Assembly: GCF_001677475.2 (NCBI RefSeq) | Contig: NZ_CP015229.1 | Reading direction: 5' to 3' (one strand) | DNA length: 64,000 nucleotides | Source: Escherichia coli | GTDB lineage: Bacteria > Pseudomonadota > Gammaproteobacteria > Enterobacterales > Enterobacteriaceae | Shown: one piece after another, positions 24,793-51,630 of the stretch | How the letters are laid out: each line of letters starts with the position of its first letter | Position numbering within the stretch: the stretch's first letter is position 1 | The notes under the pieces: model-generated | Told to the model about the DNA's origin: nothing | Databases searched by the model: none | What the model saw: the letters and a program-made list of their open reading frames with translations, nothing else | Translations under genes and position numbers: made by a program

Positions 24793-25812
24793 CTACTTAC
24801 TGACCACAAGCGGCAAATCCAGTGTTGGCGTGATTTTGGTTTTACGATCGTAAATCAACACCTGATTTTCTGTTTTGTGTCCACTGAAAATTTGTTTGTC
24901 GCGACTGCTGCCTTCGTAATCTGAAATCCCTTTGGCTTTTATGTCATGGAAGTTGCACCCAAACGGAACGCCGGCTTTTTGCTCGGCTGCACGTTTAGCC
25001 TGATTCCACCAGTTGTTCAGCGTCTTGGCTATTACCTTCCCGCCTTTGGTTGTGTTGATCACATACTCGCATGTGCCGGAAGATACATTTCGGGCTAACT
25101 GGATCGCCGTACGTAATCGCGGAGACCATTCCTTGATTTGTTTAGTGCCAGTCTTGTTTTGCTCAATGTAAATCCCTTTATCCATAATATCCTGCCATTT
25201 CAGCTCGAGTACATCACCGAGCCTTGCCGCACAAAGATAGGATATCTCCATTGCAATACGTAACTGTGGAATTGCTTCCGCATATATTGCTGCATACTGT
25301 TCATCGGTGATGTAAACAGTACGGGCTTTAAGTGTGAATTTTCTGACACCTTTGCATGGATTATTTTTCACATACCCACGCTCATATCCCCATCCGTATA
25401 CACGGCTCAGACTTGCCAGTTCATGGTTTGCCTGGGTCTTGCTCTCAAGTCCTCGCTTATCCATGAAAATTCTTACCTGTTCAATTTTTACATTATCAGC
25501 AAGCACTTTTCCGAATACTGCCAACAATGCCCTTTGATGTTGCCGATAATCTTTTTGGGTTCGGGGGGCCAGTTCTGTAAATGCAGGGGAGTCCATAAAC
25601 ATGTGCCATAATTTAGCTACTGTCATTATGTTGTGGAGTTTTGCTTTTTCCAGCTCATAATTTTGCCAGACTTTAGCTACGCTGGTTTCCCGCACTCTTC
25701 CGAGCCCTATAGTTCTTGTGCTTCCTTCGGGTTTCCATACGTAACTGTAACCGTTCGATCTAACACGCGGTGGTAGTGCATTATCTTTTTTGTTTTTTCT
25801 TGGTCTTCCCAT
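24793..25812 (-). CDS. int: Prophage tyrosine integrase
   Basis: 339 aa, adjacent to tRNA junction, C-terminal H-x-x-K...GH...Y catalytic pattern. Confidence 0.85.
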   Translation of the reverse strand: MGRPRKNKKDNALPPRVRSNGYSYVWKPEGSTRTIGLGRVRETSVAKVWQNYELEKAKLHNIMTVAKLWHMFMDSPAFTELAPRTQKDYRQHQRALLAVFGKVLADNVKIEQVRIFMDKRGLESKTQANHELASLSRVYGWGYERGYVKNNPCKGVRKFTLKARTVYITDEQYAAIYAEAIPQLRIAMEISYLCAARLGDVLELKWQDIMDKGIYIEQNKTGTKQIKEWSPRLRTAIQLARNVSSGTCEYVINTTKGGKVIAKTLNNWWNQAKRAAEQKAGVPFGCNFHDIKAKGISDYEGSSRDKQIFSGHKTENQVLIYDRKTKITPTLDLPLVVSK

Positions 25813-26098: not shown

Positions 26099-28549
26099 TT
26101 AAAAATCAACCGGATTCGGGATCAGTTTTTGCCAGATTGCTGAAACGTATTTTGCCTGGTAACGAGCGTCATCAAGTGCATTATGGCGCTCACCTTCGAA
26201 TGGGATAGCTGTTCTGGCATCGAAGTCTATGGCTTTCCCCAGCTCAACGATTGTGCGTACATCGCGATCGTTGCAGTAGCGCCAAGGGCAGGGGATACCC
26301 TGTCGTTCGTATGAACGGCGTAAAATCACGTTGTCGAAGTTGGCCCCATTACCCCAGACCTGAACAAAAAATTCACCGGAGTTTTCGTCGATAAATTCCC
26401 GCAATTGCAGCAGTGCATCATCTAACGGGATTTCATCGGTCAGAATGGCAGATTGCGCCTCGCGTGATTGCTTAAGCCACCATTTTATGGTGTCACGATT
26501 AATGACTCCGCCAGCAGTTTCCAGATCGATGGTCTTACTAAATTCCGGCCCCATATCTCCGGTTTGCGGATCGAAAAATATTGCACCTATTGAGATAATC
26601 GGGGCATCGGGATTTTTTCCCATGGTTTCAAGGTCGATCATAAGATGGTCACATGACCTGCTTGTGGATGTGATATTGTGATAACCGTTCACCTTAATTA
26701 AGGGATCTGTTGCTTCGCCAGTTTCATTATCGCTGGCGTGATGCTGATTGCCTCCAGTGTTCTCCTTGTGTGGATGTTCAGCGCCTTCCATTTCCTCCGG
26801 ATCATTCTCCTGAGCTTCAACCTGATTCTCTTCATCGAATGTTTCCTGGTATGTTGCGTTTCCCATGACCGCGCCACAGTCAGGACAGTTGCCGCCGCTG
26901 CTCTGACCGCAGACGGTGCAGACTTTTTCCGGTTCCTGTTGCACTACTGGTTCGGATTGTTTCGTTTCTGGTTCGTTTTGTTGCGCATTTGGGCTGTTTT
27001 GTTCCGCTTTCTGGTCGTTCTGTGCCGTTTCTTGCTGGTTCTGGTTCACAGAATCGCGGGTTTCAATCCCCTTCACCCATTTCGGATCATTCGGGTCGCT
27101 AATCCCTGCAACAAATTCACCACGTGATGCAGCGAGCAACTGACTGGCGTCAGGCAGGCTGATATTGGCTGCCTGCATAATTTTGTTTACTTCGTCAGCG
27201 GTAACTTTTACCTGATTAACCGGATCTATCTGTGCCTGAGTATCCAGCGATTGCGTGTCCTGGCGAAGTTCAGTTGTATCCGGCTCCATTGCTTCAGTCG
27301 TTGCCTGTTCATCTGCCATTGCGTCAGACGGTTGTGATTTTTCATCATTATTTTTTTCTTCTTCTGTTTCGCGTTTAGCAGCCAGTTCGCGGTTAACTTC
27401 TTCCTGGATATCTTTTTCCGGTGTATGTCGTGCAGCAGCGAGAGTTTCTTCGGTAGGGTTCTCGTGATCAGTCTCCGTTAAGTGGGCGTTGATATACTCC
27501 TGAAGGCGTCCCGGGTAGAGATAAAGTTCAGGGTGAGCACTTCGGATAAGTGCAAAAATAGCGGCACGGGAATAATCCAGAATACCAGGGGTTGCGCGAA
27601 GTGCTGCGGACCATTCTTTGAACGGACTTTCTTTCTTCCGGACGACTTCTTTTGCGCGACGATAAACGCTGCCCGGAATTTCATAAATATTAAAATCCAT
27701 CGGAAGTGTGGCCGCTGCAATCTCCACATCCAGCGTATCGAAGGTGTGTACTAAATTCGGATTGCGATCGGTTTTGTTCCCGCCGCCAGCATTAGCACCG
27801 GAAGCCGTGCGGATGATGCGTGAAACACGATTCCCCTTCATCCACTCTTTTGTAAGCAGACCGCGATCGGTGTAGTCAGCGCCCAGGTATGCTTCGAAAA
27901 AAGCAGTCATCAGTCCCAGGTCTGAATTGCCAGGATTAGGGAAAACTTTGTCAGTGTCACGAACCAGTTTGTGGAGATCGCGAATTTCCAGCGGTTCGAG
28001 TTGCGCTGCTTTATTTGAGATGGCCAGCGCGGTAACGGCGGGAAGTTTTTCATCCTGTGCGTTATGTAATGCGCGCAGTTCGCCCCGCGAAACGTGAGTG
28101 ATCGGTTTTTCGCTGCCGTGCTGAGCAAGCCAGCGAATGGGAAGTATCTGGCCAGAAACCGGGAGTAGCATATTCTCCTCAATATCAGTCATGTCTTCGC
28201 CGTTGACGTTGGTATTGTCAGTGCTGGCTGGTTTATCCTGAACAGAGGGCGCGATAAATACCATTGTGATACCATCTTCCCCGCCTTTTTCGTATCGGTT
28301 GCAGAATTCGGTATCAAACACACCTTCCGGAGGCAGGTCATTCACAACGGGTAAATGGACGCGGACGGGTTTTTTAAAGTCGTCTTCATCATAATCGTTG
28401 TCATCCATTGCGGTAATACAACGGGAGATGGCAACAGATAATTTTTTTGCTGTGGTCCAGTAAAAACCACCTTTAATTCCCAGGCGTTTTCTGACTTTGT
28501 CATTTTTTGCTTCGCAATATAGCGCAAATTCTTCTTTTTCAGTGCTCAT
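26099..28549 (-). CDS. Large prophage exonuclease with C-terminal DnaQ-like (DEDDh) 3'-5' exonuclease domain and central acidic/Q-rich region
   Basis: 816 aa; C-terminus LMIDLETMGKN...HNALDDARYQA; CxxC...CxxC zinc ribbon; low-complexity E/Q/N-rich segment. Confidence 0.6.
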   Translation of the reverse strand: MSTEKEEFALYCEAKNDKVRKRLGIKGGFYWTTAKKLSVAISRCITAMDDNDYDEDDFKKPVRVHLPVVNDLPPEGVFDTEFCNRYEKGGEDGITMVFIAPSVQDKPASTDNTNVNGEDMTDIEENMLLPVSGQILPIRWLAQHGSEKPITHVSRGELRALHNAQDEKLPAVTALAISNKAAQLEPLEIRDLHKLVRDTDKVFPNPGNSDLGLMTAFFEAYLGADYTDRGLLTKEWMKGNRVSRIIRTASGANAGGGNKTDRNPNLVHTFDTLDVEIAAATLPMDFNIYEIPGSVYRRAKEVVRKKESPFKEWSAALRATPGILDYSRAAIFALIRSAHPELYLYPGRLQEYINAHLTETDHENPTEETLAAARHTPEKDIQEEVNRELAAKRETEEEKNNDEKSQPSDAMADEQATTEAMEPDTTELRQDTQSLDTQAQIDPVNQVKVTADEVNKIMQAANISLPDASQLLAASRGEFVAGISDPNDPKWVKGIETRDSVNQNQQETAQNDQKAEQNSPNAQQNEPETKQSEPVVQQEPEKVCTVCGQSSGGNCPDCGAVMGNATYQETFDEENQVEAQENDPEEMEGAEHPHKENTGGNQHHASDNETGEATDPLIKVNGYHNITSTSRSCDHLMIDLETMGKNPDAPIISIGAIFFDPQTGDMGPEFSKTIDLETAGGVINRDTIKWWLKQSREAQSAILTDEIPLDDALLQLREFIDENSGEFFVQVWGNGANFDNVILRRSYERQGIPCPWRYCNDRDVRTIVELGKAIDFDARTAIPFEGERHNALDDARYQAKYVSAIWQKLIPNPVDF

Positions 28550-31631: not shown

Positions 31632-32027
31632 CTAGGTAACTTTTTGTTGTGCTGCTAGCCACCTTGCAACTATACGATCCATTGTCTCTTTTTTTTCCTT
31701 CATATCTTTAAGTATTTGCTGTTGATCTTCCTCTGGAAATGCCTCAAATGTTTGAAGTAGCTCCTTTTGCTTAGGAGATATTTTTAATATATCCTGTGTT
31801 TTGTCTTCTTTTTCTTCATTTAATGGTAAGAAAAACCAATGTTGGGGAAAACCCGTTACTTCAGATAGTTTATCTAGATTAGCTGCTGTAGGGCTTGATA
31901 TACCACAAACCCACCTTTGGACGGATTGTTGAGCAATACCAATTCTGCGCGCAAGCTCTGCTTGACTCCAGCCTTTTTCTAATAGAAGCATCTTAATTCT
32001 AAGAGCACTAATTTCGAGTACGCCCAT
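31632..32027 (-). CDS. XRE-family HTH repressor (CI/RacR-like), paralog A
   Basis: N-terminal HTH LRIKMLLLEKGWSQAELARRIGIAQQSVQRW; C-terminal domain shared with the next ORF. Confidence 0.65.
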   Translation of the reverse strand: MGVLEISALRIKMLLLEKGWSQAELARRIGIAQQSVQRWVCGISSPTAANLDKLSEVTGFPQHWFFLPLNEEKEDKTQDILKISPKQKELLQTFEAFPEEDQQQILKDMKEKKETMDRIVARWLAAQQKVT

Positions 32028-32429: not shown

Positions 32430-32531
32430 ACATTCATTATCTTTAGTAATTGCAAAACAAGCAAATACTTGACTGGTTTATTTAGTTGCGTATAAACTTT
32501 CGCTTGTTCTAAATGTGCTGAGATAAAAATT
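32430..32531. promoter_or_regulatory. Divergent promoter/operator region of the immunity switch
   Basis: AT-rich intergenic region between divergent repressor and cro-like genes; AACAAGC/GCTTGTT inverted half-sites. Confidence 0.4.
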
Positions 32532-32819
32532 ATGACGCTAAAGGAATTCATCAAATCATTAAAAATTGGAGAAGCAAAAAAATTTGCGACCAACCTTGGT
32601 GTGTCTCCATCCTTCTTGTCCCAAATGGCATCTGGAACTTCACCTGTGTCTCCTGTTCGTGCGTTGATGATAGAAGCAGAAACTGGAGGACACGTTACAA
32701 GACGCGAATTGAGACCTAATGACTGGGAGCTTATATGGCCCGAATACACTGGAATCACGTCCCCTTCACGTCACAAATATGAACTTAACACCAAAAAGGC
32801 TGATGGGGTTGACTCATGA
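32532..32819 (+). CDS. Cro/YdaS-like HTH protein
   Basis: 95 aa; position and HTH as for Rac YdaS. Confidence 0.55.
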   Translation: MTLKEFIKSLKIGEAKKFATNLGVSPSFLSQMASGTSPVSPVRALMIEAETGGHVTRRELRPNDWELIWPEYTGITSPSRHKYELNTKKADGVDS

Positions 32820-33241
32820 TAATCAAGCATGAACACATCCGCATGGCGATGAATGCATGGGCGCATCCGGACGGTGAAAAAGTTCCGGCAGCTGAAATAA
32901 CCCGGGCTTATTTTGAGCTGGGTATGACGTTCCCGGAGCTATATGACGACAGGCATCCGGAAGCGCTGGCTCGTAATACCCAGAAAATTTTCCGCTGGCT
33001 GGATAAAGACACCCCTGATGCGGTTAAAAAAATTCAGGCGTTGTTACCAGCTATCGAAAAAGCAATGCCGCCTCTGCTGGTGGCCCGAATGCGCAGCCAC
33101 AGTTCAGCCTATTTTCGGGAACTGGTGGAGACGCGGGAACGACTGGTGAGAGACGCTGATGATTTTGTCGCAGTGGCGATCGCTGGTTTCAATCAGATGA
33201 ATCGTGGTGGTCCGGCGGGAAATGCCGTGGTGATGCACTAA
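32816..33241 (+). CDS. YdaT-like / CII-position protein
   Basis: 141 aa immediately after the cro-like gene. Confidence 0.4.
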   Translation: MIIKHEHIRMAMNAWAHPDGEKVPAAEITRAYFELGMTFPELYDDRHPEALARNTQKIFRWLDKDTPDAVKKIQALLPAIEKAMPPLLVARMRSHSSAYFRELVETRERLVRDADDFVAVAIAGFNQMNRGGPAGNAVVMH

Positions 33242-33248: not shown

Positions 33249-34232
33249 GTGTTCGGGGGTTTTATGAGCAGCAAGCTTCATGGTCTTGTCTGGGAAGGGT
33301 GCGCCTTCACTGGCATGATCTTATCCAGGGTGGCGGTTATGGCCCGTCTTGCAGACTACAGCAATGACGAGGGCGTGTCATGGCCTGCCATTGAAACTAT
33401 CCGGCGTCAGATCGGTGCAAGAAGTGAATCCACCGTGAAATCTGCTATTGCAGAACTGGCGAAAGAGGGCTGGCTGACGAAGGAAGAGCGTAAGGTCGGT
33501 GGGCGTAACGTAAGCAATATCTATCGGCTTAATGTGGAAAAACTCGAAGCAGCTGCAGCGGCGGCGCGTGAGGCATATAAACCGAAAAGAAAAATTAGCC
33601 CGGCAAAAAATGACCAGTTAACAGTTGACCAGTCAAATATTGCCCCATCAATGGTTGGCCCGTCAAATTTTGATGGATCAACTGTTGATAAAAAACTGCC
33701 GATTAGGGGGACGATGATTGACCCCGATCAGTCATTATTAAAACCTGATCCGTCAGATGAAAGATCTTCTTGTCCTGACGTTTCACTGCCGGACAAAAAA
33801 CAATCATCACCAGTTGAGCGATTTCTGGAGAAACACCCGGATGCGCATACCTGGAATGTGCAGAAGCGACAGTGGGGTACCCGTGAGGATGTCGCCTGTG
33901 CGCAGTGGATTTGGGGACGGGTTGTTGCGTTGTATGAACAGGCCGCCAGTGATGATGGTGAGGTATCACGCCCCAGAGAACCTAACTGGACGACCTGGGC
34001 GAATGATGTGCGCATGATGCGTATGCTGGATGGACGTAGTCACCGGCAGATTTGTGAAATGTTTGGGCGTGTCCAGCGGGATTCGTTCTGGGTAAAAAAC
34101 ATCATGAGTCCGGCAAAACTCCGGGAAAAATGGGATGAGCTGGTTATTCGTCTGGGGCGTTCGCCTGTACAGCGTTGCGTGAATCACATTTCTGAACCGG
34201 ATACCGAAATTCCGCCGGGGTTCAGGGGGTAA
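33249..34232 (+). CDS. Putative replication initiation protein (YdaU-like, N-terminal winged HTH)
   Basis: 327 aa; position in early-right operon. Confidence 0.45.
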   Translation: MFGGFMSSKLHGLVWEGCAFTGMILSRVAVMARLADYSNDEGVSWPAIETIRRQIGARSESTVKSAIAELAKEGWLTKEERKVGGRNVSNIYRLNVEKLEAAAAAAREAYKPKRKISPAKNDQLTVDQSNIAPSMVGPSNFDGSTVDKKLPIRGTMIDPDQSLLKPDPSDERSSCPDVSLPDKKQSSPVERFLEKHPDAHTWNVQKRQWGTREDVACAQWIWGRVVALYEQAASDDGEVSRPREPNWTTWANDVRMMRMLDGRSHRQICEMFGRVQRDSFWVKNIMSPAKLREKWDELVIRLGRSPVQRCVNHISEPDTEIPPGFRG

Positions 34233-34274: not shown

Positions 34275-34676
34275 ATGGGGGCTATTTATACCGAAGAACA
34301 GCGGGAAAGGTTACAGCGTCACATCGTTGACCTTGTACGTAAAAACGGGCGTATGACAATGCCACAACTGGCATCGGCAACATATGCTTCACATGATTCC
34401 ATTCGCCGGTACCTGAAGATGCTGGTGAGCCAGGGCGAAGTGTATGTTGTCAGCGGAAAAGGGGTATTCCTTTCAGAGAGAGTTTACCGTGAATGGCTGG
34501 CAAGTTCGGCAAAAAAATCAAGGGTTATCCGCAAACCAGCACAAAAACAGGGTAAGGCCGGAGTACAACCCTACGACCGGCACCAGAACGTAATTTGCCG
34601 GGAATGTCGTAACAGCGAATCAATGCAGCGGGTACTGGCTTTTTACAGGGGTGGATTTCAGGAGCTCGTATCGTGA
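34275..34676 (+). CDS. Hypothetical protein
   Basis: 133-aa ORF. Confidence 0.4.
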   Translation: MGAIYTEEQRERLQRHIVDLVRKNGRMTMPQLASATYASHDSIRRYLKMLVSQGEVYVVSGKGVFLSERVYREWLASSAKKSRVIRKPAQKQGKAGVQPYDRHQNVICRECRNSESMQRVLAFYRGGFQELVS

Positions 34677-34981
34677 AAAAGTGGGTGCGTGCCGAGATAC
34701 TGATTCTACGGCAGTGTGCGGGAACAATGACGGTGGAATGCATCGGGATGCTTATTGGTCGTAGTGAGGCTGCGGTCAGAACGAAAGCGCGGGAACTGGG
34801 TATTAGTATGATGTTACGGGGTGATTATCACCAGTCAGCAAAATATCCGCAGAGTGATATTGAGCTGGCGCGACAGCTGCATCAGCGTGGCGTGTCCAGG
34901 AGAGAAATCGCCAGAAAATTTGGAATGCCGCTGCGCACAGTGAATAACTACGTTTATTTCGACAGGAGGGTGTCTGCGTGA
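34673..34981 (+). CDS. Hypothetical HTH protein
   Basis: 102-aa ORF, overlapping stop/start. Confidence 0.4.
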   Translation: MKKWVRAEILILRQCAGTMTVECIGMLIGRSEAAVRTKARELGISMMLRGDYHQSAKYPQSDIELARQLHQRGVSRREIARKFGMPLRTVNNYVYFDRRVSA

Positions 34982-35223
34982 AAATCCTGTATCAGGATTA
35001 CGGCCCGGTGGGACAGGTGGTTATCAGCAGTACTGTAATGGAGTTCCGGAAGCATAACCGTGTGGTGGATGCAGTGCTGTTAGCCTGTCCGGGGATATCG
35101 GCGAGCCGTGCAGGTGTGTTTTTTATGAAGACGAAGTTATATGGCAGTACAGCGTGGATAAAGAAGGCGTACCGGGTAGCGTTGCAGGAGGTAAACAGTG
35201 AGCGAATCGGCAACCATTCTTGA
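34978..35223 (+). CDS. Hypothetical protein
   Basis: 81-aa ORF. Confidence 0.35.
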   Translation: MKILYQDYGPVGQVVISSTVMEFRKHNRVVDAVLLACPGISASRAGVFFMKTKLYGSTAWIKKAYRVALQEVNSERIGNHS

Positions 35224-35686
35224 TATGTCCTGTGGCAGTCGTATGTTCTGGTTCGATAAGAATGACGACCGGGCGATATTTAGCGATATCAGAAAAGAAG
35301 AGCACACATTATGTGATGGACGACGCCTGATAATTAGCCCTGACCTGATAGCAGATTTTCGTGCATTACCATTTGCAGACGCATCGTTTCCGGTTGTTGT
35401 ATTCGACCCTCCGCATCTTGAGCGTGTTGGTGATAACGCCTGGATGGGAAAGAAATATGGACGGCTGAATAAAGATACCTGGCGTGATGATTTGCGGCAG
35501 GGATTTAAAGAAGCCTTTCGTGTGTTGTGGCCACACGGTGTTCTGATTTTTAAATGGAATGAAACGCAAATACCTGTCCGCCAGATATTGGCACTAACCG
35601 ACGCGAAACCAATCATCAGCCAGCGCACCGGTAAGAACGATAAAACACATTGGATTATTTTTGTGAAGGAAGCGACCAGTGGGTAA
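35198..35686 (+). CDS. Small orphan DNA methyltransferase (DPPH motif)
   Basis: 162 aa; VVVFDPPHLER motif IV-like; no adjacent restriction gene. Confidence 0.55.
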   Translation: MSESATILDMSCGSRMFWFDKNDDRAIFSDIRKEEHTLCDGRRLIISPDLIADFRALPFADASFPVVVFDPPHLERVGDNAWMGKKYGRLNKDTWRDDLRQGFKEAFRVLWPHGVLIFKWNETQIPVRQILALTDAKPIISQRTGKNDKTHWIIFVKEATSG

Positions 35687-35933
35687 ATCAAAATGCCAGG
35701 TTTATGGCAACAAGATAGAACCGAGTACGGCACTGGCAAACTCCCTTGAGCATGATGCTGAATACACGACGCGAAAAGGTCTGCTGATATACAAAATCTG
35801 GAATGAGAGTTTAACTCGCGACCCTGATTTGGTGATGTTGCGTTCCGGTGAATTTTCTAAATCACCAGTGCGGGTTTCATTTTGTCCGTTCTGTGGTGAA
35901 AGTCTGAAAACGTGGGAGAACAGAAATGAATGA
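35679..35933 (+). CDS. Hypothetical protein (CxxC)
   Basis: 84-aa ORF. Confidence 0.35.
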   Translation: MGKSKCQVYGNKIEPSTALANSLEHDAEYTTRKGLLIYKIWNESLTRDPDLVMLRSGEFSKSPVRVSFCPFCGESLKTWENRNE

Positions 35934-36237
35934 AATTAAAGAAATACCAGTAGTACGTGATGAATATGGCTGCTGGACGCATCCTGAATATGAAAAATTC
36001 TGTGATGGTAGAGAACATATTTCAACGGAAGAGTTTAACGCCTGGATGGAGGAAAATAATCTTCAATGGACCATCAGAACTATGGATGAAGATGATTTTA
36101 ATCTGGACGCAGATGGTCCCGATATTGCCTCCTGGAAACCGGAGCGCCCGGAAGGTGAAGGCTGGTTCATTGGTTCAATTCATGACACTGAAGATGGTCC
36201 GGTTTGTGTATGGCTGAGAAATAAGGTTGAAGCATAA
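35926..36237 (+). CDS. Hypothetical acidic protein
   Basis: 103-aa ORF. Confidence 0.35.
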   Translation: MNEIKEIPVVRDEYGCWTHPEYEKFCDGREHISTEEFNAWMEENNLQWTIRTMDEDDFNLDADGPDIASWKPERPEGEGWFIGSIHDTEDGPVCVWLRNKVEA

Positions 36238-36368
36238 AGGCGATAAACCACCTGACAACAAAACACTGAAAAATTTAAATCAGAAGTGAATTTTATTAAA
36301 TCCTTAACCGGAGGGATTCCTGCACTCTCAGAACATCAGGAGACCGCCCGAAAGGGCGGTAATGAAAA

Positions 36369-36836
36369 ATGGCTGAATTAACCAAATGGCTACAAAACAC
36401 GATTACCGGAATTGAAACGGTAGTAGACGATAAATCGTTTGTATGTGATGAAATAGTATTCAAAATCGATGTGGTTAAAAACGTACTTACCGCATTTAAA
36501 GTCGCGCTGGCATCGCTGGAAGCCGAACCGGTGACATGGCGATATCGCTACGTGAGAAAAGGCGTTACGAACTTTCAGGAGAAGCCGTGGGTTGGTGACT
36601 GGAAATATGTACCGACAAAAGAGGATTGCAACGACAGACCGAACTATGAAATTCAGGCGTTATTCACGGCCCAGCCTGTGCCACTGACACCCGAAGGATT
36701 GATTAAAGCGGTGCGCTTCTATGAACAGGTTAAGAGTGAAAATCCGCCAGTCGAAACCGGAGCATGGAAAGACGCTGTTGACTGGGTGCTCAAAGAGGCT
36801 TGTCAGGCTGTAAACATTGGCATCAAAGGAGAGTGA
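36369..36836 (+). CDS. Hypothetical protein
   Basis: 155-aa ORF; N-terminal WLQNTIT motif shared with ORF 37032. Confidence 0.4.
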   Translation: MAELTKWLQNTITGIETVVDDKSFVCDEIVFKIDVVKNVLTAFKVALASLEAEPVTWRYRYVRKGVTNFQEKPWVGDWKYVPTKEDCNDRPNYEIQALFTAQPVPLTPEGLIKAVRFYEQVKSENPPVETGAWKDAVDWVLKEACQAVNIGIKGE

Positions 36837-36837
36837 G

Positions 36838-37029
36838 ATGAACGGACAAATATCAATTGTTCGACCGGGAGCATGTGACGATCGCGAGATACGAATGATT
36901 ATTCGTCTGGCGATGGGGAAAACAATAACTGCTCTCATTACTCCTGAAAATCTCGCATTAGCATTAACAGGAAAGTCAGACCTGCCAATAGAGCTAAAGC
37001 TGCGAAATGTTGAGATTAAGGTGAAATAG
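36838..37029 (+). CDS. Hypothetical small protein
   Basis: ORF 36817-37029, start at MNGQISIV. Confidence 0.3.
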   Translation: MNGQISIVRPGACDDREIRMIIRLAMGKTITALITPENLALALTGKSDLPIELKLRNVEIKVK

Positions 37030-37031
37030 TT

Positions 37032-37244
37032 ATGAATACTCTTACCAAAGAATGGTTACAGAACACGATTACCAGCATTGAGTCAGCACGGGATGAAATA
37101 CCATTCGGACTCGATGAAGATCAAAGCAACATGCTTACCGCATTTACATTCCGGCGAGGAGAAGCAACGATTAAGCCGGGTAATGGTATTGAGCAGGCAA
37201 CTCACAGGATGAAATTACCGGAACCGCCGCAGGAGGTGAACTGA
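37032..37244 (+). CDS. Hypothetical protein
   Basis: 70-aa ORF; N-terminus paralogous to ORF 36369. Confidence 0.35.
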   Translation: MNTLTKEWLQNTITSIESARDEIPFGLDEDQSNMLTAFTFRRGEATIKPGNGIEQATHRMKLPEPPQEVN

Positions 37245-37639
37245 TGAAAGATGAAGTCGACAATGTTATCACCCTGGTACAGCCAAAATCAGAGGAGGAA
37301 GGACTCCTCAACGTTGTGATAACCGACAGAAAAAGCGGCGAGCAAAAATGCTGTCAGCATATCCGTACAACAATTTCAGAAGTGAATCGTACGATTACCT
37401 GCAACCGGTGTGGATTAGCTTTAGAGCCATTCGAGTTTATTCTCGATCGTGCGAGAAACGGTGAAAACATCGTGTCTGAGATTAAATCACTCTATGCAAA
37501 GCGGGATGCTCTTCGTGAAGCTGTGGCAAAACTTGAACGTGAAGAGAAAAACGCCAAAGCCCGGTTACGAGCAGCCAGGACAGCAATACTGTATGCGGAA
37601 AATGACCTTAAAAATATTGAGCAGGAGGTGAATCGATGA
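37244..37639 (+). CDS. Hypothetical protein with CxxC zinc motif and coiled coil
   Basis: 131-aa ORF. Confidence 0.4.
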   Translation: MKDEVDNVITLVQPKSEEEGLLNVVITDRKSGEQKCCQHIRTTISEVNRTITCNRCGLALEPFEFILDRARNGENIVSEIKSLYAKRDALREAVAKLEREEKNAKARLRAARTAILYAENDLKNIEQEVNR

Positions 37640-37843: not shown

Positions 37844-38143
37844 TTATAAGAAATCGGTTTCATAACTTTGCCCACCATGATAGATACCGACAATAAAGAC
37901 TTTTCTGCCATCAACGGCAAAAGCAATAATCGTTCTGTGGCGGAAATGAGTTACCCGCATCCCCTGGCGAATATCATCGCGTTTATTGCCCCGATGCGGG
38001 AATGTAGAAAACCCATCAAGATAATCAAGAAGCGCATTGGCATAATTGTCAGCAATGACGTTCCCTGCTTTCTCCGTTATATATCTGTGCAGGTTGATTA
38101 TTTGTTGTTCGGCCTCAGGAGTAATGATGACTTCATATGTCAT
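37844..38143 (-). CDS. ParE/RelE-family toxin
   Basis: 99 aa; paired with upstream ParD-like gene. Confidence 0.65.
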   Translation of the reverse strand: MTYEVIITPEAEQQIINLHRYITEKAGNVIADNYANALLDYLDGFSTFPHRGNKRDDIRQGMRVTHFRHRTIIAFAVDGRKVFIVGIYHGGQSYETDFL

Positions 38144-38148
38144 GCAGA

Positions 38149-38406
38149 TTACTTCCCGGATCGAATCGCGGCGCGAACCTGTGAAATGGAGCGTCCGTTG
38201 TTTGGATTTTCGCGGATAGAATCAAGAGAGGGGGCGGCTGAATGCGTTAACCACGCTTCGATTGCTTTATCGCGCTCATTCAGTGCGCGAAGCCCTTCAC
38301 GAATGACCTCGCTTTCTGAAGCATAGGCACCGGAAGCCACACGGGCGCGCACCATGTCAGCCATCTCGTTAGTTAATGTAATGCTGAATTGTTGGGTTGT
38401 ACGCAT
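38149..38406 (-). CDS. ParD-like ribbon-helix-helix antitoxin
   Basis: From MRTTQQFSITLTNEMADMVRARVASGAYASESEVIREGLRAL. Confidence 0.65.
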   Translation of the reverse strand: MRTTQQFSITLTNEMADMVRARVASGAYASESEVIREGLRALNERDKAIEAWLTHSAAPSLDSIRENPNNGRSISQVRAAIRSGK

Positions 38407-38487
38407 GGTAAACCTCACGGAGTAGGATAGAACACCATTCGATGATAGCACGTTGCCTGTTGACGACAACAGAAATCAGAGACAATA

Positions 38488-38821: not shown

Positions 38822-39880
38822 ATGCGGGTATTGCTTCGACCTGTTCTGGTACCGGAACTCGGACTGGTTATCGTTAAGCCAGGCCGTGAATCCATGCAGG
38901 TATTCCATAACGGCAGAGTACTGGTGGAACCGGAACCGAAAAGTATGCGCGGTCTGCCGTCCGGAGTCGTTCCTGCCGTTCGCCAGCCGCTGGAGGAGGA
39001 TAAATCATTACTGCCGTTTTTCAGTAACGCACGGGTGATTCGTGCTGCTGGTGGTGCTGGTGCATTGTCTGACTGGCTGTTGCGCCATATTAAATCCTGC
39101 CAGTGGCCACACGGCGATTATCACCACAGTGAAACCGTCATTCACCGTTATGGCGCTGGCGCGATGGTGTTGTGCTGGCACTGCGACAACCAGTTGCGTG
39201 ACCAGACAGCCGAATCACTCGAGCAACTTGCTCATCAAAACCTGTCAGCATGGATGATTGACGTCATCCGTCACGCAATGAATGGCACACAGGAGCGGGA
39301 ATTATCGCTGGCTGAATTATCCTGGTGGGCAGTCTGCAATCAGGTGGCGGACGCGCTACCGGAGACAGTATTACGTCGTTCTCTGAGGTTACGTGCGGAA
39401 AAAATCCGCTCGGTGTATCGCGAAAGCGACATCGTACCGGGAGAGCAGACCGCCACCAGCATACTAAAGCAGCGCACAAAAAATCTTGCGCCGTTGCCTC
39501 ACTCTCATCAGCAACAGAACCCGCCACAGGAAAAGACGGTGGTCAGCATTGCCGTTGATCCGGAGTCACCGGCTCAGTATCTCCAGCGCCAGAAACCACA
39601 ACGGGAAGAGATGCCCGTATACACGCGCTGGGTAAAAACGCAGAAATGCATGACGTGCGGTAATCAGGCAGATGATCCGCATCACATCATTGGTCATGGA
39701 CTGGGAGGGATGGGAACAAAGGCTGATGATTTGTTTGTTATTCCGCTGTGCCGTAAATGTCATAACGAACTGCACGCCGGGGTAAAAGATTTTGAAGAAA
39801 AACACGGCAGCCAGCTGTTGTTGCTGATTCGTTTTTTAATGCACGCGAGAAATTCGGGTGTCCTGAAGTGGAAAGCATGA
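38822..39880 (+). CDS. YdfU-like (DUF968-type) protein with C-terminal Cys/His zinc motif
   Basis: 352 aa; CMTCGN...HHIIGHG...CRKCHNELH. Confidence 0.5.
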   Translation: MRVLLRPVLVPELGLVIVKPGRESMQVFHNGRVLVEPEPKSMRGLPSGVVPAVRQPLEEDKSLLPFFSNARVIRAAGGAGALSDWLLRHIKSCQWPHGDYHHSETVIHRYGAGAMVLCWHCDNQLRDQTAESLEQLAHQNLSAWMIDVIRHAMNGTQERELSLAELSWWAVCNQVADALPETVLRRSLRLRAEKIRSVYRESDIVPGEQTATSILKQRTKNLAPLPHSHQQQNPPQEKTVVSIAVDPESPAQYLQRQKPQREEMPVYTRWVKTQKCMTCGNQADDPHHIIGHGLGGMGTKADDLFVIPLCRKCHNELHAGVKDFEEKHGSQLLLLIRFLMHARNSGVLKWKA

Positions 39881-40261
39881 ATGACTGAACGCATAGAATT
39901 TGTTTTGCCTTACCCGCCGACGGTAAACACCTACTGGAGACGTCATGGCAATACGTATTTCATCTCGGAAGTCGGAAAGCGTTATCGCCGTGATGTGGCT
40001 CTAATTGTTCGCCAGCAGCGACTGAAATTAAACCTGTCCGGAAGGCTGGCGATAAAGATTATTGCAGAGCCACCGGATAAGCGCCGTCGTGACCTGGACA
40101 ATATCCTGAAAGCACCGCTGGATGCGTTGACGCATGCGGGACTGCTTATCGACGACGAGCAGTTTGATGAAATCAATATTGTGCGCGGTCAGCTTGTTCC
40201 TGGTGGTCGGCTGGGCGTGAAGATTGACGAAATAATGCATGACGGGCAGGTCCAAAAATGA
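39881..40261 (+). CDS. rusA: Holliday junction resolvase RusA
   Basis: 126 aa; PPTVNTYWRRHGN...RRRDLDNILKAPLDALTHAGLLIDDEQ. Confidence 0.85.
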   Translation: MTERIEFVLPYPPTVNTYWRRHGNTYFISEVGKRYRRDVALIVRQQRLKLNLSGRLAIKIIAEPPDKRRRDLDNILKAPLDALTHAGLLIDDEQFDEINIVRGQLVPGGRLGVKIDEIMHDGQVQK

Positions 40262-41079
40262 AACTGGAAGATTTACCGAAATACTATTCCCCAAAATCGC
40301 CAGGCCTGACTGATGCATCCGCCTCGACGTCAAAAGATGCGCTGAGTATCACTGATGTGATGGCTGCGCAGGGTATGACACAGAACCGGGCTGAGATGGG
40401 ATTTTCTGCGTTCCTGGGGAAAATGGGCATTAGTATGAATGACAGGGCGCGGGCAACAGAATTACTGGCAGATTATGCATTAAGTCAGTGCGGTCGTGTG
40501 GCTGCGTTAAGAAAACTTCCGGCAGAGATAAAACCGGCAGTGATGCGCATTATGGCTTCGTACGCTTTTGAGGATTATGCCCGCAGCGCAGCGAGTAAAA
40601 AGCAATGCCCTTGTTGCCGAGGGGAAAAATTTATTGAAAGCGAGGTTTTTACAAACAAGGTTCAGTATCCGGATGGTAAGCCGCCAGTATGGGCAAAGTG
40701 TACAAAAGGCGTGTATCCGTCTTACTGGGAAGAATGGAAAAAAATCCGGGAGGTGGTGAAGGTTTCCTGTCCTGAATGTAAAGGGAAGGGAGAGATTTCG
40801 ACCGCCTGTAAAGACTGCCGTGGGCGTGGTGTAGCCATTCATCGTGAAGAGTCAGAAAAACGGGGTATGCCTGTTATCAGGGACTGCCAGCGTTGTGGCG
40901 GTCGTGGCTATGAAAGACAGCCGTCGACGGAGGCATTTAATGCCATATGTGAGGTGACAAATCAAATAACACGCGCGTCATGGGAAAAAACGGTTAAGCA
41001 ATTCTATGACACTCTGGTGGTTCGGTTTGACATTGAAGAGGCATGGGCGGAGCGGCAGTTAAAAAAGGTAACCAGATAA
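40258..41079 (+). CDS. Putative late-gene antiterminator (Q-like) with zinc-finger cysteines
   Basis: 273 aa; position after rusA and before tR'-like terminator and lysis genes. Confidence 0.5.
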   Translation: MKLEDLPKYYSPKSPGLTDASASTSKDALSITDVMAAQGMTQNRAEMGFSAFLGKMGISMNDRARATELLADYALSQCGRVAALRKLPAEIKPAVMRIMASYAFEDYARSAASKKQCPCCRGEKFIESEVFTNKVQYPDGKPPVWAKCTKGVYPSYWEEWKKIREVVKVSCPECKGKGEISTACKDCRGRGVAIHREESEKRGMPVIRDCQRCGGRGYERQPSTEAFNAICEVTNQITRASWEKTVKQFYDTLVVRFDIEEAWAERQLKKVTR

Positions 41080-41639: not shown

Positions 41640-42353
41640 ATGGCTGTTGTCTGTTCAGTTATCATGGTTTGCTCCCCAATTAATATTTTTCTTGAAAAGG
41701 ATAAGTTGTCACTTAAGCCCGGCTCAGTCGTTCTGGCCACCAAATGCATCAGGGAGCTGTTCCTTATGCATTATGGCAAAGTTAAAATTGTCGATATAAA
41801 CCATTCCATAGTAAGTCAATATCTGGAAAGTCAGCATAAGCTGACGAGGACTCGTCTGACTGACATTCCGCTTTACCTGTTCCTGGAACCCAACAATCCT
41901 GCGTTGGCTGCGGCTTTAATTACCAGCCAGAGATTTTACGGAGATACCACGGATATGTTTCTTATGATGGCCTGCCTGTCGCTGTTTGAATCAGATGAAC
42001 GGATGTCATTATTTTTAAGTGGATGTTTATCCAGTATAAGTGCCAAAGTCAGAGCGATAATTCAAACAGATATATCTGCAAACTGGATGCTCGGTGCGAT
42101 TGCGTTACGCCTGCATATGAGTGAGAGTTTGTTAAAGATAAAACTGAAAAATGAAGGGCATATGTTCAGTCGCTTGTTGCTGGAAGAGCGGATGCGGGTT
42201 GCTGTAAATATGTTATGTTCCCGGGATGGGTATGGACAGACAGTGGCAGAAAAATGCGGTTATTCAAGTAGGTCCTATTTTATCTCTGTATTTCACCGCT
42301 ATTATGGCTTCCCGCCAGACAGATATGTATCTATGCAAGGGCTTGATTTTTGA
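41640..42353 (+). CDS. AraC-family transcriptional regulator (prophage cargo)
   Basis: C-terminal AraC HTH (...GYSSRSYFISVFHRYYGFPPDRY); AT-rich; start may be internal Met. Confidence 0.6.
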   Translation: MAVVCSVIMVCSPINIFLEKDKLSLKPGSVVLATKCIRELFLMHYGKVKIVDINHSIVSQYLESQHKLTRTRLTDIPLYLFLEPNNPALAAALITSQRFYGDTTDMFLMMACLSLFESDERMSLFLSGCLSSISAKVRAIIQTDISANWMLGAIALRLHMSESLLKIKLKNEGHMFSRLLLEERMRVAVNMLCSRDGYGQTVAEKCGYSSRSYFISVFHRYYGFPPDRYVSMQGLDF

Positions 42354-42379: not shown

Positions 42380-42455
42380 GGCCCTTTAGCTCAGTGGTGA
42401 GAGCGAGCGACTCATAATCGCCAGGTCGCTGGTTCAAATCCAGCAAGGGCCACCA
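42380..42455 (+). tRNA. tRNA with CAT anticodon (Met or Ile2-lysidine; ileZ-like)
   Basis: 76 nt cloverleaf, anticodon loop CTCATAA, terminal CCA. Confidence 0.8.
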
Positions 42456-42554: not shown

Positions 42555-42631
42555 GCGTTGTTAGCTCAGTCGGACAGAGCAATTGCCTTCTAAGCAATCG
42601 GTCACTGGTTCGAATCCAGTACAACGCGCCA
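42555..42631 (+). tRNA. tRNA-Arg (anticodon TCT; argO-like)
   Basis: 77 nt, anticodon loop CTTCTAA, GGTTCGAATCC T-loop, terminal CCA. Confidence 0.8.
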
Positions 42632-45206: not shown

Positions 45207-45689
45207 ATGTCAGGACCTCCGAAAACCCCGCCACGCCTGCATTTGATACGAGGCAACCCCTCAAAGCGCCCCGTTAAAGACCACAAAAAAACCGCTAAAA
45301 AGGATGAAAAAGGTCTTCCTAAAATTCCGCAGCATTTAGGGGCTCAGGGGAAGTACTGGTTCAGGCGAATGGCGGAAGAGCTGAATGCGGAAGGGATCAT
45401 TTCTCAGCTTGATGCGCGTGCACTCGAGTTGCTGGTGGAAGCCTACACCGAATATCGGCATCACTGCGAAACACTCGATGTTGAGGGGTATACCTACCGC
45501 ACGGAAACGCAGAGCGGTGATGTACTGATTAAGGCGCACCCCGCGGCGGCAATGAAAGCGGATGCCTGGAAGCGGATCCGGGCAATGCTTGCAGAGTTTG
45601 GTATGTCACCGGCAAGCCGGGCTAAAGTAAATATCGCCGGACCGGATGATGTTGATCCGCTGGCGGAGCTTTTAAAAGCGAGAGACTGA
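45207..45689 (+). CDS. Terminase small subunit (P27-family-like)
   Basis: 160 aa; homologous to the satellite TerS at 59601. Confidence 0.7.
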   Translation: MSGPPKTPPRLHLIRGNPSKRPVKDHKKTAKKDEKGLPKIPQHLGAQGKYWFRRMAEELNAEGIISQLDARALELLVEAYTEYRHHCETLDVEGYTYRTETQSGDVLIKAHPAAAMKADAWKRIRAMLAEFGMSPASRAKVNIAGPDDVDPLAELLKARD

Positions 45690-46716
45690 TGGCAAAAGTG
45701 GCTGACGGGATCCGCTACGCCGAACGTGTTGTTGCAGGAGAAATTGTTGCTGGCGAATTTGTCCGCCTGGCCTGCCAGCGTTTTCTTGATGATCTGAAGT
45801 ACGGCGAAGAGCGGGGGATTTATTTCAGTGAACCCCGTGCGCAGCACATCCTGAATTTCTACAAATTTGTGCCTCATGTAAAAGGGGCGCTGGCAGGCCA
45901 GCCCATTGAGTTGATGGACTGGCATGTATTTATTCTCATTAATATTTTTGGTTTTGTCATTCCGCTGGTCAATGAAGAGACCGGGGAAGTTGTCATGCGC
46001 AGCGATGGCAGTGGACGTCCGGTGATGGTGCGCCGGTTCCGGACGGCGTACAACGAAGTCGCTCGTAAAAACGCAAAATCAACTCTGTCATCGGGTATCG
46101 GCCTGTATATGACGGGGGCAGATGGTGAAGGCGGAGCTGAGGTGTATTCAGCCGCAACCACGCGTGACCAGGCCAGAATCGTGTTTGAAGACGCCAAAAA
46201 TATGGTCAGAAAAGCCCGGTCGACACTCGGGCGGTTGTTTGATTTCAACAAGCTGGCGATTTACCAGGAGCAGAGCGCATCAAAATTTGAACCGCTTTCT
46301 TCGGATGCAAACAACCTAGACGGTCTGAACATCCACTGCGCCATTATTGATGAGCTGCATGCACATAAAACCCGCGACGTGTGGGACGTTCTGGAAACGG
46401 CAACCGGTGCCCGTCTGCAGTCCCTGTTATTTGGTATCACCACGGCGGGCTTTAACAAGGAAGGGATTTGTTACGAGCAACGCGATTACGCCATCAAGGT
46501 ATTGCGAGGCTATAACAGCGACGTGGAGGGCGCGGTAAAAGACGACTCCTACTTTGCGATTATTTACACGCTCGATGAGGGAGATGATCCGTTTGATGAA
46601 ACGGTCTGGCAGAAAGCGAATCCGGGCCTGGGCATCTGTAAACGCTGGGATGATCTGCGTCGTCTGGCGAAAAAAGCGAAGGAGCAGGTCTCGGCGCGGG
46701 TGAATTTTTTCACGAA
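45689..46716 (+). pseudogene. Prophage terminase large subunit, N-terminal ~343 codons, interrupted by satellite insertion
   Basis: Aligns with satellite TerL N-terminus (PHVKGA..G.PIEL..W); frame runs into unrelated satellite DNA and stops at 46882. Confidence 0.8.
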
Positions 46717-46845
46717 GAAAGTAACATCACGCCGTAACAACAGTGCAGTCTGTCCTGATTTTTTTAGTAACCAAATGAAAGAAAAAGATTTTTTCTTGTT
46801 CGTCGTTTTTGTTTTTTCTGGATGGTTCTGGCTGTTTTCATCATT

Positions 46846-46867
46846 TGTGTATTGCACTGTGTATTGC
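46846..46867. repeat. Tandem GTGTATTGC repeats near satellite left end
   Basis: tgtgtattgcactgtgtattgc; near-identical copy at 62023-62043. Confidence 0.6.
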
Positions 46868-46887
46868 AAAAACGGGTTATAAATCAC

Positions 46888-48111
46888 ATGGCGCTAAACA
46901 AACTGAGCGATAAAAAACTTCGTTCCCTGCTTGGACGCAGGAGTGAGAGACAGGAAACCATCGCTGATGGTAACGGGCTTTCGGTACGGGTCAGTAAATA
47001 CGGATGTGTTAGTTTTGTTTTCTTTTACAGACTGGCGGGAAGGGGAACCGCGCCCATCTGGCTGACACTTGGAAAATATCCTGATCTGAGTCTCAAATCA
47101 GCGAGAGAGATGCGCGATCAGTGTCGAACCTGGCTTGCGGAGGGCAGAGATCCACGGATTCAGATAAAAATTGAACGGGAAGCCACCTTGCAACCTGTTA
47201 CCGTTCGTGAGGCACTTGAATACTGGCTTGATAATTATGCAATGGATAAGCGTAGGGGAGCAGAACATATCAGGCAGTGCTTTGGTAAACATATTTATCC
47301 GGTGATTGGTCATGTACCACTTAGTGATTGCTCTATATCTATGTGGATTAAGTGTTTTGACAAAATAAAAAAAGTAGCACCTGTACAGGCCGGAGCTTTG
47401 TTGCGTATATCAAAACAGGCGCTTAAATTTTGTAGGGTAAGAAAATACGCGATTAGTCATGAAATTGATGATCTTGAGGTCTGTGATGTGGGAAAAAAGT
47501 CTGCGCGAAGAAGCAGGGTTTTAACAGATGATGAAATCAGAGATTTATGGCGAAGTATTAATACTGATTATGACAATCACGAATTATCATATGAAAACCG
47601 AATTATTTTACGTTTCCTGGTAGTTTTTGGTTGCCGACTGTCAGAAGTATTACTGTCGTCCTGGGGAGAGTGGGATTTTGATAAGAAATTATGGCGCGTT
47701 CCCGCTGAACATAGCAAAAATGGCAGGGAAATAATCAGACCGATTCCTGATGGCATGTTTAACTGGTTAGTTACGTTAAAAAAAATAACAGGTAACAAAG
47801 AAAATGTGATTGGGTTTGATATGCGTCAGTGTACGGCAAGCGTAACTATCGGTAAGACATGGAAAAGGATGAAACACTCGGAGAAATGGACGGCGCATGA
47901 TATGCGAAGAGTGTTTGCCACAAAACTAAGTGATCATGGTTTTGAACATAATGTGGTTGAACAGTTGCTTGGGCACACATTAGGCGGTGTTGCCGGGGTT
48001 TATAACAGAAGCCAGTATATGGACAGAAAAAAAGAAGCTATGAACTGGTGGTACGACTATCTGAATAAGCAAATTAGTGGTGACGGTAATGATTCAAATA
48101 GTTACGCGTGA
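46888..48111 (+). CDS. int: P4-type tyrosine integrase
   Basis: 407 aa from MALNKLSDKKLRSLLGRR..GLSVRVSKYG (typical P4-family N-terminus); HDMRRVFAT...LGH...Y. Confidence 0.85.
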   Translation: MALNKLSDKKLRSLLGRRSERQETIADGNGLSVRVSKYGCVSFVFFYRLAGRGTAPIWLTLGKYPDLSLKSAREMRDQCRTWLAEGRDPRIQIKIEREATLQPVTVREALEYWLDNYAMDKRRGAEHIRQCFGKHIYPVIGHVPLSDCSISMWIKCFDKIKKVAPVQAGALLRISKQALKFCRVRKYAISHEIDDLEVCDVGKKSARRSRVLTDDEIRDLWRSINTDYDNHELSYENRIILRFLVVFGCRLSEVLLSSWGEWDFDKKLWRVPAEHSKNGREIIRPIPDGMFNWLVTLKKITGNKENVIGFDMRQCTASVTIGKTWKRMKHSEKWTAHDMRRVFATKLSDHGFEHNVVEQLLGHTLGGVAGVYNRSQYMDRKKEAMNWWYDYLNKQISGDGNDSNSYA

Positions 48112-48142
48112 AGAACTTGAAAATGATAAAACAATCGACAGG

Positions 48143-48310
48143 ATGATTAAGGAAGATGAATGTGCATGGTTAACCGCTCTTGGCAGGAGACACAGATCGT
48201 TACTTGAAAAGGAAGGAAAATTTCCACGAAAAATATGTATTGGTCCACAAACAAAAGTCTGGCGCTTATCTGAGGTGCTGGAATGGGTAAAAGGTGAATG
48301 GAAACCCTGA
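48143..48310 (+). CDS. AlpA-family DNA-binding protein, copy 1
   Basis: ORF 48077-48310; start at the internal Met (MIKEDECAWLTALG...); LSEVLEWV. Confidence 0.6.
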   Translation: MIKEDECAWLTALGRRHRSLLEKEGKFPRKICIGPQTKVWRLSEVLEWVKGEWKP

Positions 48311-48333
48311 GCTAAATTAAATGAGATATAATC

Positions 48334-48357
48334 AACCCGTCTTTTGGCGGGTTTTTT
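48334..48357 (+). terminator. Intrinsic terminator
   Basis: aacccgtcttttggcgggttttttt. Confidence 0.6.
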
Positions 48358-48373
48358 TATAGGTGATATTTTT

Positions 48374-48652
48374 ATGCAAAAATTTATTTATCCTACACCC
48401 GAAGAACGCATTCAGATTCTGAAAGATCATGGCGAACCGTATGATCGCCGTATACGCGAACATGAGTGTGCCAATCGTACCGGGCTTTCAAGAAGCAGAC
48501 GTTGGGTACTTGAACAGGAGGGAGCATTTCCTGCTCGTGCTCATTTAGGGAAAGTGTCTGTTTCCTGGTTGCTCTCTGATGTGCTCTGGTGGGTTATGCA
48601 TCCGCCAGGAGTAAAGGAAGTAAACAGCCCATACAAAAACGCCAATAAGTAA
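48374..48652 (+). CDS. AlpA-family DNA-binding protein, copy 2
   Basis: From MQKFIYPTPEER; ECANRTGLSRSRRWVLEQEGAFPA. Confidence 0.6.
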   Translation: MQKFIYPTPEERIQILKDHGEPYDRRIREHECANRTGLSRSRRWVLEQEGAFPARAHLGKVSVSWLLSDVLWWVMHPPGVKEVNSPYKNANK

Positions 48653-51625: not shown

Positions 51626-51630
51626 AAATA

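Follow-up and report, generated by a model that had tools for sequence, protein, structure and literature searches.

Among the methyltransferases described in phages, PamA of the Staphylococcus aureus phage mPhi11 is a protein of 141 amino acids (aa) that carries an NPPY motif and makes DNA sensitive to DpnI. M.EcoPA8orf6770P of the Stx phage PA8 was annotated as a DNA adenine methyltransferase and prefers 16S rRNA when bound to a phage partner, PNB-2, while L24 of phiP27 and p25 of the Serratia phage OS31 (M.EcoGII-like) are non-specific adenine methyltransferases. Here, we describe the gene located at 35198..35686 (+) of a 64,000-nucleotide (nt) stretch of Escherichia coli DNA (contig NZ_CP015229.1 of assembly GCF_001677475.2; hereafter the window), which lies in the early region of a prophage and encodes a 162-aa protein with the fold and motifs of S-adenosylmethionine (SAM)-dependent methyltransferases. 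We propose, with a probability of roughly 0.55, that it is a stand-alone DNA amino-methyltransferase that would be made during lytic growth and would protect phage DNA.

PamA resembles the window protein in being a very small orphan phage methyltransferase encoded just 3′ of replication genes, with an (N/D)PPx motif near residue 65–70, but it has NPPY instead of DPPH and another motif layout, without the N-terminal LDxCCGS. It was discarded as a relative: the BLASTP match spanned 22 residues at motif IV with E = 0.18, and the two proteins are unrelated in sequence. PamA shows that methylation of DNA is within reach of a phage enzyme of very small size. The Stx phage enzyme is likewise encoded by an E. 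coli prophage, labeled as a DNA methyltransferase, and endowed with a DPPx motif; it differs in belonging to the MT-A70 family, in carrying DPPW, and in needing PNB-2, and it illustrates that DNA methyltransferase labels can be wrong. Kinship of the window protein with MT-A70 was rejected, as hhalign aligned 12 columns with an MT-A70 neighbor gene (probability 2%) and Pfam gave no MT-A70 match. The M.EcoGII-like enzymes are orphan, prophage-borne, and of relaxed specificity, and offer a model for an enzyme without a dedicated recognition domain. However, L24 and p25 are about 350 aa long and encoded near the lysis or tRNA region, which places them in a different family; they are of the beta class, with no homology beyond the stretch from motif IV to motif VI. 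The best solved neighbors in sequence and structure were PH0226 (PDB 1ve3), a generic Methyltransf_11 protein, and the small Trm112-dependent methyltransferases Bud23 and Trm11. Motifs I–III of PH0226 can be aligned with those of the window protein, but 121–128 of the 162 residues superpose on these three with a template modeling (TM) score ≤0.6, they have no invariant DPPH (the Trm11 motif is DPPY), and they possess helices after strands 1–3 that are absent from both of our models of the family.

The gene is intact. According to the list of open reading frames (ORFs), it runs from a GTG start to a TAA stop and encodes 162 aa, and the part of the protein that reads ...VVVFDPPHLERVG... puts DPPH at residues 70–73 (codons GAC CCT CCG CAT at 35405–35416). 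Its start signal and main motifs are located as follows:

35186..35191 (+): ribosome-binding site (AGGAGG), separated from the GTG by 6 nt, read from the sequence
35219..35236 (+): equivalent of SAM-binding motif I, residues 8–13 (LDMSCG; LDxCCGS in the family), with D9 invariant and C12 and G13 conserved at ≥90%
35405..35416 (+): equivalent of motif IV, DPPH, residues 70–73, after strand beta4 (64–69)

The closest homologues of the protein reached E = 1.9e-103, clusters at 50% identity matching it at E ≤ 0.001 numbered 1,934, and the median ratio of nonsynonymous to synonymous substitution rates (dN/dS), calculated against the 14 homologues with unsaturated dS, was 0.12, which points to purifying selection. 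It is thus not a chance ORF. A 200-codon ORF on the other strand, 35137..35739 (−), covers the entire gene without homology support and was considered a shadow ORF, since all homology support lies on the + strand. In E. coli 08-00022 and eleven further complete genomes, RefSeq annotates DNA 100% identical to the gene as a coding sequence with these boundaries, under the product name "class I SAM-dependent methyltransferase". The identical protein is present on 278 public contigs, and the gene was found in 874 of 5,426 complete E. coli genomes (about 16%). It is therefore an ordinary, widespread, and already annotated prophage accessory gene.

Residue conservation was counted in an alignment of 94 diverse members of the family. 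D9, D30, R32, P48, P71, P72, and R108 were invariant, and all of them are present in the window protein. Conservation reached at least 90% for L8, C12, G13, D49, D53, F54, F64, V67, F69, D70, H73, Y87, G88, L90, W95, G102, F103, E105, V109, L110, G114, L116, F118, K119, W120, P138, F155, and K157. In the DPPH motif, D was kept in 93/94 members, each P in 94/94, and H in 93/94, so that the motif reported for this 162-aa protein in the sequence-only reading is both real and not due to chance. The family signature (LDxCCGS, DxR, PDxxxDF, FDPPH, KYGxL, RVL, and FKW) is found in the window protein. A histidine at the fourth position of motif IV is unusual, and our full-text literature searches turned up no methyltransferase described as having DPPH. 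When the profile was searched against solved structures, the N-terminal half aligned with the methyltransferase PH0226, LDxCCGS corresponding to LDLACGVG (motif I), vDiR to VDIS (motif II), aDFraLPF to GDARKLSF (motif III), and the VVF preceding DPPH to the end of strand 4. Motif I thus precedes motif IV, the order seen in gamma-class amino-methyltransferases; the permuted order of the beta class was not observed, and the window protein did not match the beta-class model N6_N4_Mtase (PF01555).

The AlphaFold2 model of the window protein had a predicted local distance difference test score (pLDDT) of 95.5 and a predicted TM score (pTM) of 0.90. It contains strands at residues 7–9, 26–30, 34–37, 43–46, 64–69, 110–121, 138–144, and 150–156, and helices only at 82–87, 95–109, and 127–131; the usual class I helices after strands 1, 2, and 3 are replaced in the model by conserved loops and a hairpin. 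The first half of a second model, that of Listeria phage A118 ORF50 (51% identical; pLDDT 95.5), was likewise poor in helices, and this is therefore a predicted feature of the family. The protein shows a class I Rossmann fold and a SAM-binding motif I. The catalytic fold takes up all 162 residues, and there is thus no target-recognition domain. Database entries with an N- or C-terminal extension were also compared: the extensions were heterogeneous and mutually unrelated, those at the N terminus had no shared domain, and most look like gene-call artefacts or fused neighbor genes. The Leclercia, Citrobacter, and Klebsiella proteins P0013, P0064, and P0096 were called as 248 aa; their C-terminal ~85 aa are conserved, have no counterpart in the window protein, and are probably a fused downstream gene. 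A Lar-like zinc ribbon suspected in the N-terminal extension of another member, P0128, found no support, and covariation of the cysteines C11 and C106 gave no clear signal.

Phage and defense libraries already have models for this family, labeled as DNA, Type II, or orphan methyltransferase. The profile of PHROG 954, "DNA methyltransferase", matched residues 3–160 with E = 3.6e-86; PADLOC PDLC03288 (MTase_II, Type II) matched residues 6–159 over profile positions 3–163 of 169 with E = 8.9e-71; and PADLOC PDLC03730 (oMTase, orphan methyltransferase) gave E = 1.2e-46. The three profiles describe one family, which has the same length, motifs, and prophage position as the window protein, and no difference was noted. 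PADLOC models for restriction-modification are understood to derive from REBASE sequences. At NCBI, the E. coli homologue WP_000004205.1 is a "class I SAM-dependent methyltransferase". The earlier interpretation of the gene as an orphan DNA methyltransferase thus agrees with the output of existing phage-specific pipelines. This is a very large family: one Mannheimia member used as a query retrieved at least 7,996 clusters at 90% identity. It was carried by 253 phage records, with 45–65% identity to the E. coli protein and hosts including Streptococcus, Vibrio, Acinetobacter, Porphyromonas, Listeria, Gordonia, Lactobacillus, Enterococcus, and Staphylococcus, and by 61 of 72,556 plasmids, most of them non-mobilisable. 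The family is mostly phage-borne.

In the 15 annotated contexts that we inspected, the gene stood among early replication, recombination, or accessory genes, with SSB, RecT, RusA, MazG, exonuclease, and primase among its neighbors, and in some phages at the int/xis end. We also clustered the neighbors (two genes on each side) of 96 loci. No gene family was conserved next to the methyltransferase across divergent loci; the commonest neighbor, which from its sequence appears to be a mosaic DUF551-type module, was present in 28/96. A partner protein resembling Trm112 or PNB-2 was sought in vain among the adjacent genes, and an obligate partner encoded next door is therefore unlikely. A second DNA methyltransferase on the same strand, of C5-type, MT-A70, PamA-like, or EcoGII-like, was found within 4 kb in 21/96 loci, often a few hundred bases away, and in 11/96 the gene was in tandem with a C5-type methyltransferase. 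This clustering fits a theme of DNA modification and anti-restriction, by association. Methyltransferase clusters in phage early regions were observed at loci L029, L036, L048, L057, L060, L061, L064, L067, L097, L079, and L088, where the partner was a large C5-cytosine methyltransferase (~710–760 aa) or an MT-A70 enzyme (DPPW), 9–800 bp away on the same strand. In Pseudomonas phage phPA-G, a Lar-like restriction-alleviation gene lies directly downstream of the family member.

In the window, the methyltransferase gene belongs to the early-right operon of a Rac-like lambdoid prophage that begins at ~24.8 kb, the left part of the window being E. coli core chromosome (helD, rlmI, yccA). The genes from the integrase to the antiterminator are:

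24793-25812 (−): integrase
26099-28549 (−): RecE-like exonuclease
31632-32027 (−): cI-like repressor
32469..32498 (+): promoter-like site 5′ of the cro-like gene, a consensus match only, likely the early-right promoter of the methyltransferase operon
32532-32819 (+): cro-like gene
32816-33241 (+): YdaT/CII-like gene
33249-34232 (+): O-like replication initiator
34275-34676 (+): DUF977
34673-34981 (+): helix-turn-helix protein
34978-35223 (+): 81-aa ORF (PHROG 1001), overlapping the methyltransferase start by 26 nt, not a conserved partner
35679..35933 (+): 84-aa ORF (PHROG 4030), overlapping the methyltransferase stop by 8 nt, not a conserved partner
35679-37639 (+): several small ORFs
37844-38469 (−): ParE toxin/ParD antitoxin pair
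38822-39880 (+): DUF968 (DUF968/HNH)
39881-40261 (+): RusA
40258-41079 (+): Q antiterminator

The gene sits in the nin-like part of this operon, between the O-like gene and Q, which agrees with the prophage early region given in the sequence-only reading. The flanking ORFs of PHROG 1001 and PHROG 4030 accompany the methyltransferase in only three near-identical loci of the 96. Between 31.5 and 41.5 kb, no independent promoter of the methyltransferase stood out above chance (11 promoter-like sites versus 13.9 expected in shuffled sequence), and terminator-like matches were also not commoner than in shuffled sequence. A gene so tightly packed downstream of the cro-like gene, and with no separate promoter signal above chance, would be expected to stay repressed in the lysogen. 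We looked for a restriction endonuclease among the early neighbors and the larger late-region ORFs, a scan that did not extend to every small ORF of the window, and found none: the flanking genes encode replication and regulatory proteins, ParDE, DUF968, RusA, and Q, and the late ORFs scanned encode structural, packaging, and integrase proteins. The absence of a partner restriction gene noted from the sequence was thus borne out over this range, and with no cognate endonuclease nearby, the methyltransferase is an orphan rather than part of a Type II system. Within the nin-like region, the ParE/ParD pair separates the small early ORFs from DUF968 and is encoded on the opposite strand.

These observations are compatible with the following scheme for a DNA amino-methyltransferase that protects phage DNA. 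The early-right operon would be transcribed only after prophage induction or infection, and the enzyme would be made together with the replication proteins. SAM would be bound through the N-terminal motifs I–III (LDxCCGS, DxR, and PDxxxDF), and the DPPH loop after beta4 would hold a flipped base, of which the exocyclic nitrogen (adenine N6 or cytosine N4) would be methylated. Replicating phage DNA would become methylated in this way, and progeny genomes would resist restriction in the next host. In the absence of a separate recognition domain, target choice would have to reside in loops of the catalytic domain; specificity would have to lie in the conserved loops 10–25, 33–46, and 74–95 and would probably be short or relaxed. 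The choice of DNA as the substrate draws on the database labels and the gene neighborhood; like the methylated atom, the timing of expression, and the anti-restriction benefit, it is inferred, while the intact gene, its methyltransferase fold and motifs, its family, its orphan status, and its place in the early operon are shown.

Several results weigh against DNA as the substrate. PHROG and PADLOC family names are annotations and not tests, our full-text literature searches found no experiment characterizing any member of the family, and the public names of members contradict one another from source to source: class I SAM-dependent methyltransferase, DNA methyltransferase, DNA cytosine methyltransferase, M.NgoMXV, TRM11 family, UbiE C-methylase, and modification methylase RsrI. 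For the window protein, Pfam Methyltransf_11 (PF08241) reached 20.2 bits, short of its cut-off of 21.2, while an NCBIfam scan gave nothing significant, the best match being NF011527, "putative methyltransferase" (E = 0.0046). The predicted fold has no target-recognition or DNA-binding domain. Fold searches placed generic, rRNA, tRNA, and lipid methyltransferases first, with M.TaqI and a cytosine-N4 enzyme at similar, weak scores, and the first Foldseek match was Bud23-Trm112, a small partner-dependent rRNA methyltransferase. With similar E-values, the Foldseek list also included Trm11, TrmM, M.TaqI, a cytosine-N4 DNA methyltransferase, HemK, and N6AMT1, none of the matches exceeding a TM of 0.6, and the best structural matches were the uncharacterized methyltransferase PH0226 and a phosphatidylethanolamine N-methyltransferase. 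A viral structure library contained one good match (TM 0.91), itself a family member, the remainder being generic.

All 94 members were also scanned against Pfam at a lax threshold. Methyltransf_11 matched 90/94 at E ≤ 1 (best 3.7e-10), and by its sequence the family appears to be a peripheral relative of Methyltransf_11. The DNA model N6_N4_Mtase was touched by 32/94 members, with a best E of 3e-4, over the stretch from motif IV to RVLxxxG (about positions 2–60 of the profile), all of these matches being below threshold, while the RNA methyltransferase families Cons_hypoth95 and UPF0020 were weakly touched by 5/94 members each. The median isoelectric point of the family core was 8.45. These results lean toward a nucleic acid, and weakly toward DNA, but the substrate cannot be read from similarity. 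Of the designation "DNA methyltransferase" made from the sequence, the methyltransferase part is therefore well founded, with its SAM-dependent fold, its motifs, its orphan status, and its PHROG and PADLOC labels, whereas the DNA part meets a generic Pfam match, mixed fold matches, and the lack of a recognition domain.

An RNA amino-methyltransferase acting on rRNA or tRNA (N2-methylguanosine (m2G), N6-methyladenine (m6A), or N4-methylcytosine (m4C)), perhaps with a partner, could alter host translation or blunt an RNA-targeting defense, and we regard this as unlikely. The best structural neighbors with a (D/N)PPx site, Trm11, TrmN, Trm14, RsmC, and TrmM, speak for RNA, as do the Bud23-Trm112 match, the NCBI record that names one member "TRM11 family", and the identity of 45–65% across phages of distant phyla, which would fit a universally conserved target. 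The Stx phage PA8 enzyme, DNA-labeled yet preferring 16S rRNA, provides a precedent, but it is an MT-A70 protein (DPPW) unrelated to this family by the hhalign comparison. Moreover, the RNA-binding module of the RNA m2G methyltransferases (Trm11, RsmC/RsmD, and Trm14) was not found in the window protein, which has no extra domain, be it THUMP, PUA, or another RNA-binding domain. The lack of a conserved neighbor in the 96 loci makes an adjacent obligate partner unlikely, the RNA-family Pfam models were touched by far fewer members than the DNA model (5/94 each versus 32/94), and the structural scores (TM ≤0.6) are generic. A protein methyltransferase (acting, e.g., on glutamine, as HemK/PrmC) or a small-molecule methyltransferase seems rather improbable. 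Outside the phage libraries, the strongest matches were Methyltransf_11 (90/94) and Methyltransf_25 (84/94), the best structures included PH0226 and the phosphatidylethanolamine N-methyltransferase, with HemK and N6AMT1 in the Foldseek list, and NF011527 was the best, weak NCBIfam match. A D-P-P-aromatic/His loop after beta4 is, however, a hallmark of exocyclic amino (base) or glutamine methylation and, invariant as it is here, not a feature of small-molecule Methyltransf_11 enzymes; nor do the replication-module context and the clustering with DNA methyltransferases suggest metabolism.

If DNA is the substrate, the enzyme could also act mainly as an epigenetic regulator, expressed from the resident prophage and altering host expression or prophage induction. 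This was the other role put forward in the sequence-only reading, and it is the less likely option, one to which we give little credence. PamA raises fnbA expression in S. aureus and the Stx phage enzyme changes spontaneous induction, but the gene studied here lies inside a packed early-right operon 3′ of the cro-like gene, without a promoter signal of its own (11 promoter-like sites versus 13.9 expected). Furthermore, prophage orphan methyltransferases of group A streptococci are barely transcribed in lysogens (the families covered are not named in that work), and m6A was absent from a group A streptococcus strain lacking its Type I system; a prophage of MGAS10750, a strain mentioned in the same study, carries a member of our family. 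It is also conceivable, at very long odds, that the window copy is an inactive remnant in a decaying prophage. The terminase region of the prophage looks rearranged or interrupted, and the protein departs from the family majority at S11, A106, and S141. However, the ORF is full-length and retains all invariant residues, the variants S11, A106, and S141 occur in other members, and the identical protein on 278 contigs and the dN/dS of about 0.12 are at odds with decay.

One lead could connect the DNA amino-methyltransferase proposed here with a characterized enzyme. In a legacy GenBank record, a 160-aa member from Klebsiella variicola is called "DNA N-4 cytosine methyltransferase M.NgoMXV", and ORF50 of Listeria phage A118 and gp24 of Enterococcus phage phiFL1B were each annotated early on as a DNA cytosine methyltransferase. 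The M.NgoMXV gene itself reportedly lies in tandem with a C5-type methyltransferase gene, an arrangement that 11 of our 96 loci also show. M.NgoMXV of N. gonorrhoeae is a characterized N4-cytosine DNA methyltransferase that a review places, with its homologues, in the gamma class; one title cited in that review speaks of an aspartate as catalytic, a role that the first residue of a D-P-P motif could fill. The putative link to our family consists of the legacy name, the statement of the review, and the gamma-like motif order. No N. gonorrhoeae member was among the matches listed in homologue searches seeded from Mannheimia and Neisseria-type proteins or found in the scan of phage-contig loci, and M.NgoMXV is not listed in the gonococcal methylome paper. 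A family member was observed at 8385-8882 (−) of locus L151, a Mu-like phage contig with transposase-like and MuB-like genes and a Neisseria DNA uptake sequence; it is about 60% identical to protein P0131, and relatives are named "unclassified Neisseria" at NCBI. Should M.NgoMXV belong to it, our family would be one already known, that of m4C DNA methyltransferases.

As the window gene is common, already annotated, and labeled much as in public pipelines, it matters little in itself. The family is of more use than any single copy, being very abundant, minimal in size, inconsistently named, and marked by an invariant, unusual DPPH; one assignment of activity would fix the annotation of thousands of genes and would also show how a methyltransferase without a recognition domain chooses its target. 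Since its members comprise ~155 residues with no recognition domain, no helices flanking strands 1–3, and an invariant DPPH, we tentatively suggest, as a speculation that may well prove wrong, that the family is not conventionally site-specific. It would instead be a non-specific DNA m4C/m6A enzyme (or one recognizing a motif of 2–3 bases), or one that methylates a conserved host RNA, and possibly among the smallest scaffolds of nucleic-acid amino-methyltransferases. Were this true, thousands of phage "DNA methyltransferase" labels would describe an activity that nobody has measured.

The exact prophage was not found in complete E. coli genomes, the best coverage being 60%, and the 1.4 kb around the methyltransferase gene are mosaic. 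On the 3′ side of Q, an AraC-type regulator (41640-42353) is followed by tRNA-Met (42380-42455) and tRNA-Arg UCU (42555-42631). Further downstream, the terminase region (45689-62855 of the window) looks interrupted or duplicated, with the following genes:

45689-46882: ORF matching the N-terminal part of the large terminase only
46822-48111: tyrosine integrase; its C-terminal end matches the C-terminus of the terminase as well
49533-50504: repressor-like gene
51927-53336: primase/helicase-like gene
55609-56754: major head
57276-58580: portal
59941-61602: full large terminase
62130-62855: another terminase fragment

This arrangement suggests that an integrative element or a second phage is nested in, or lies next to, the terminase gene.

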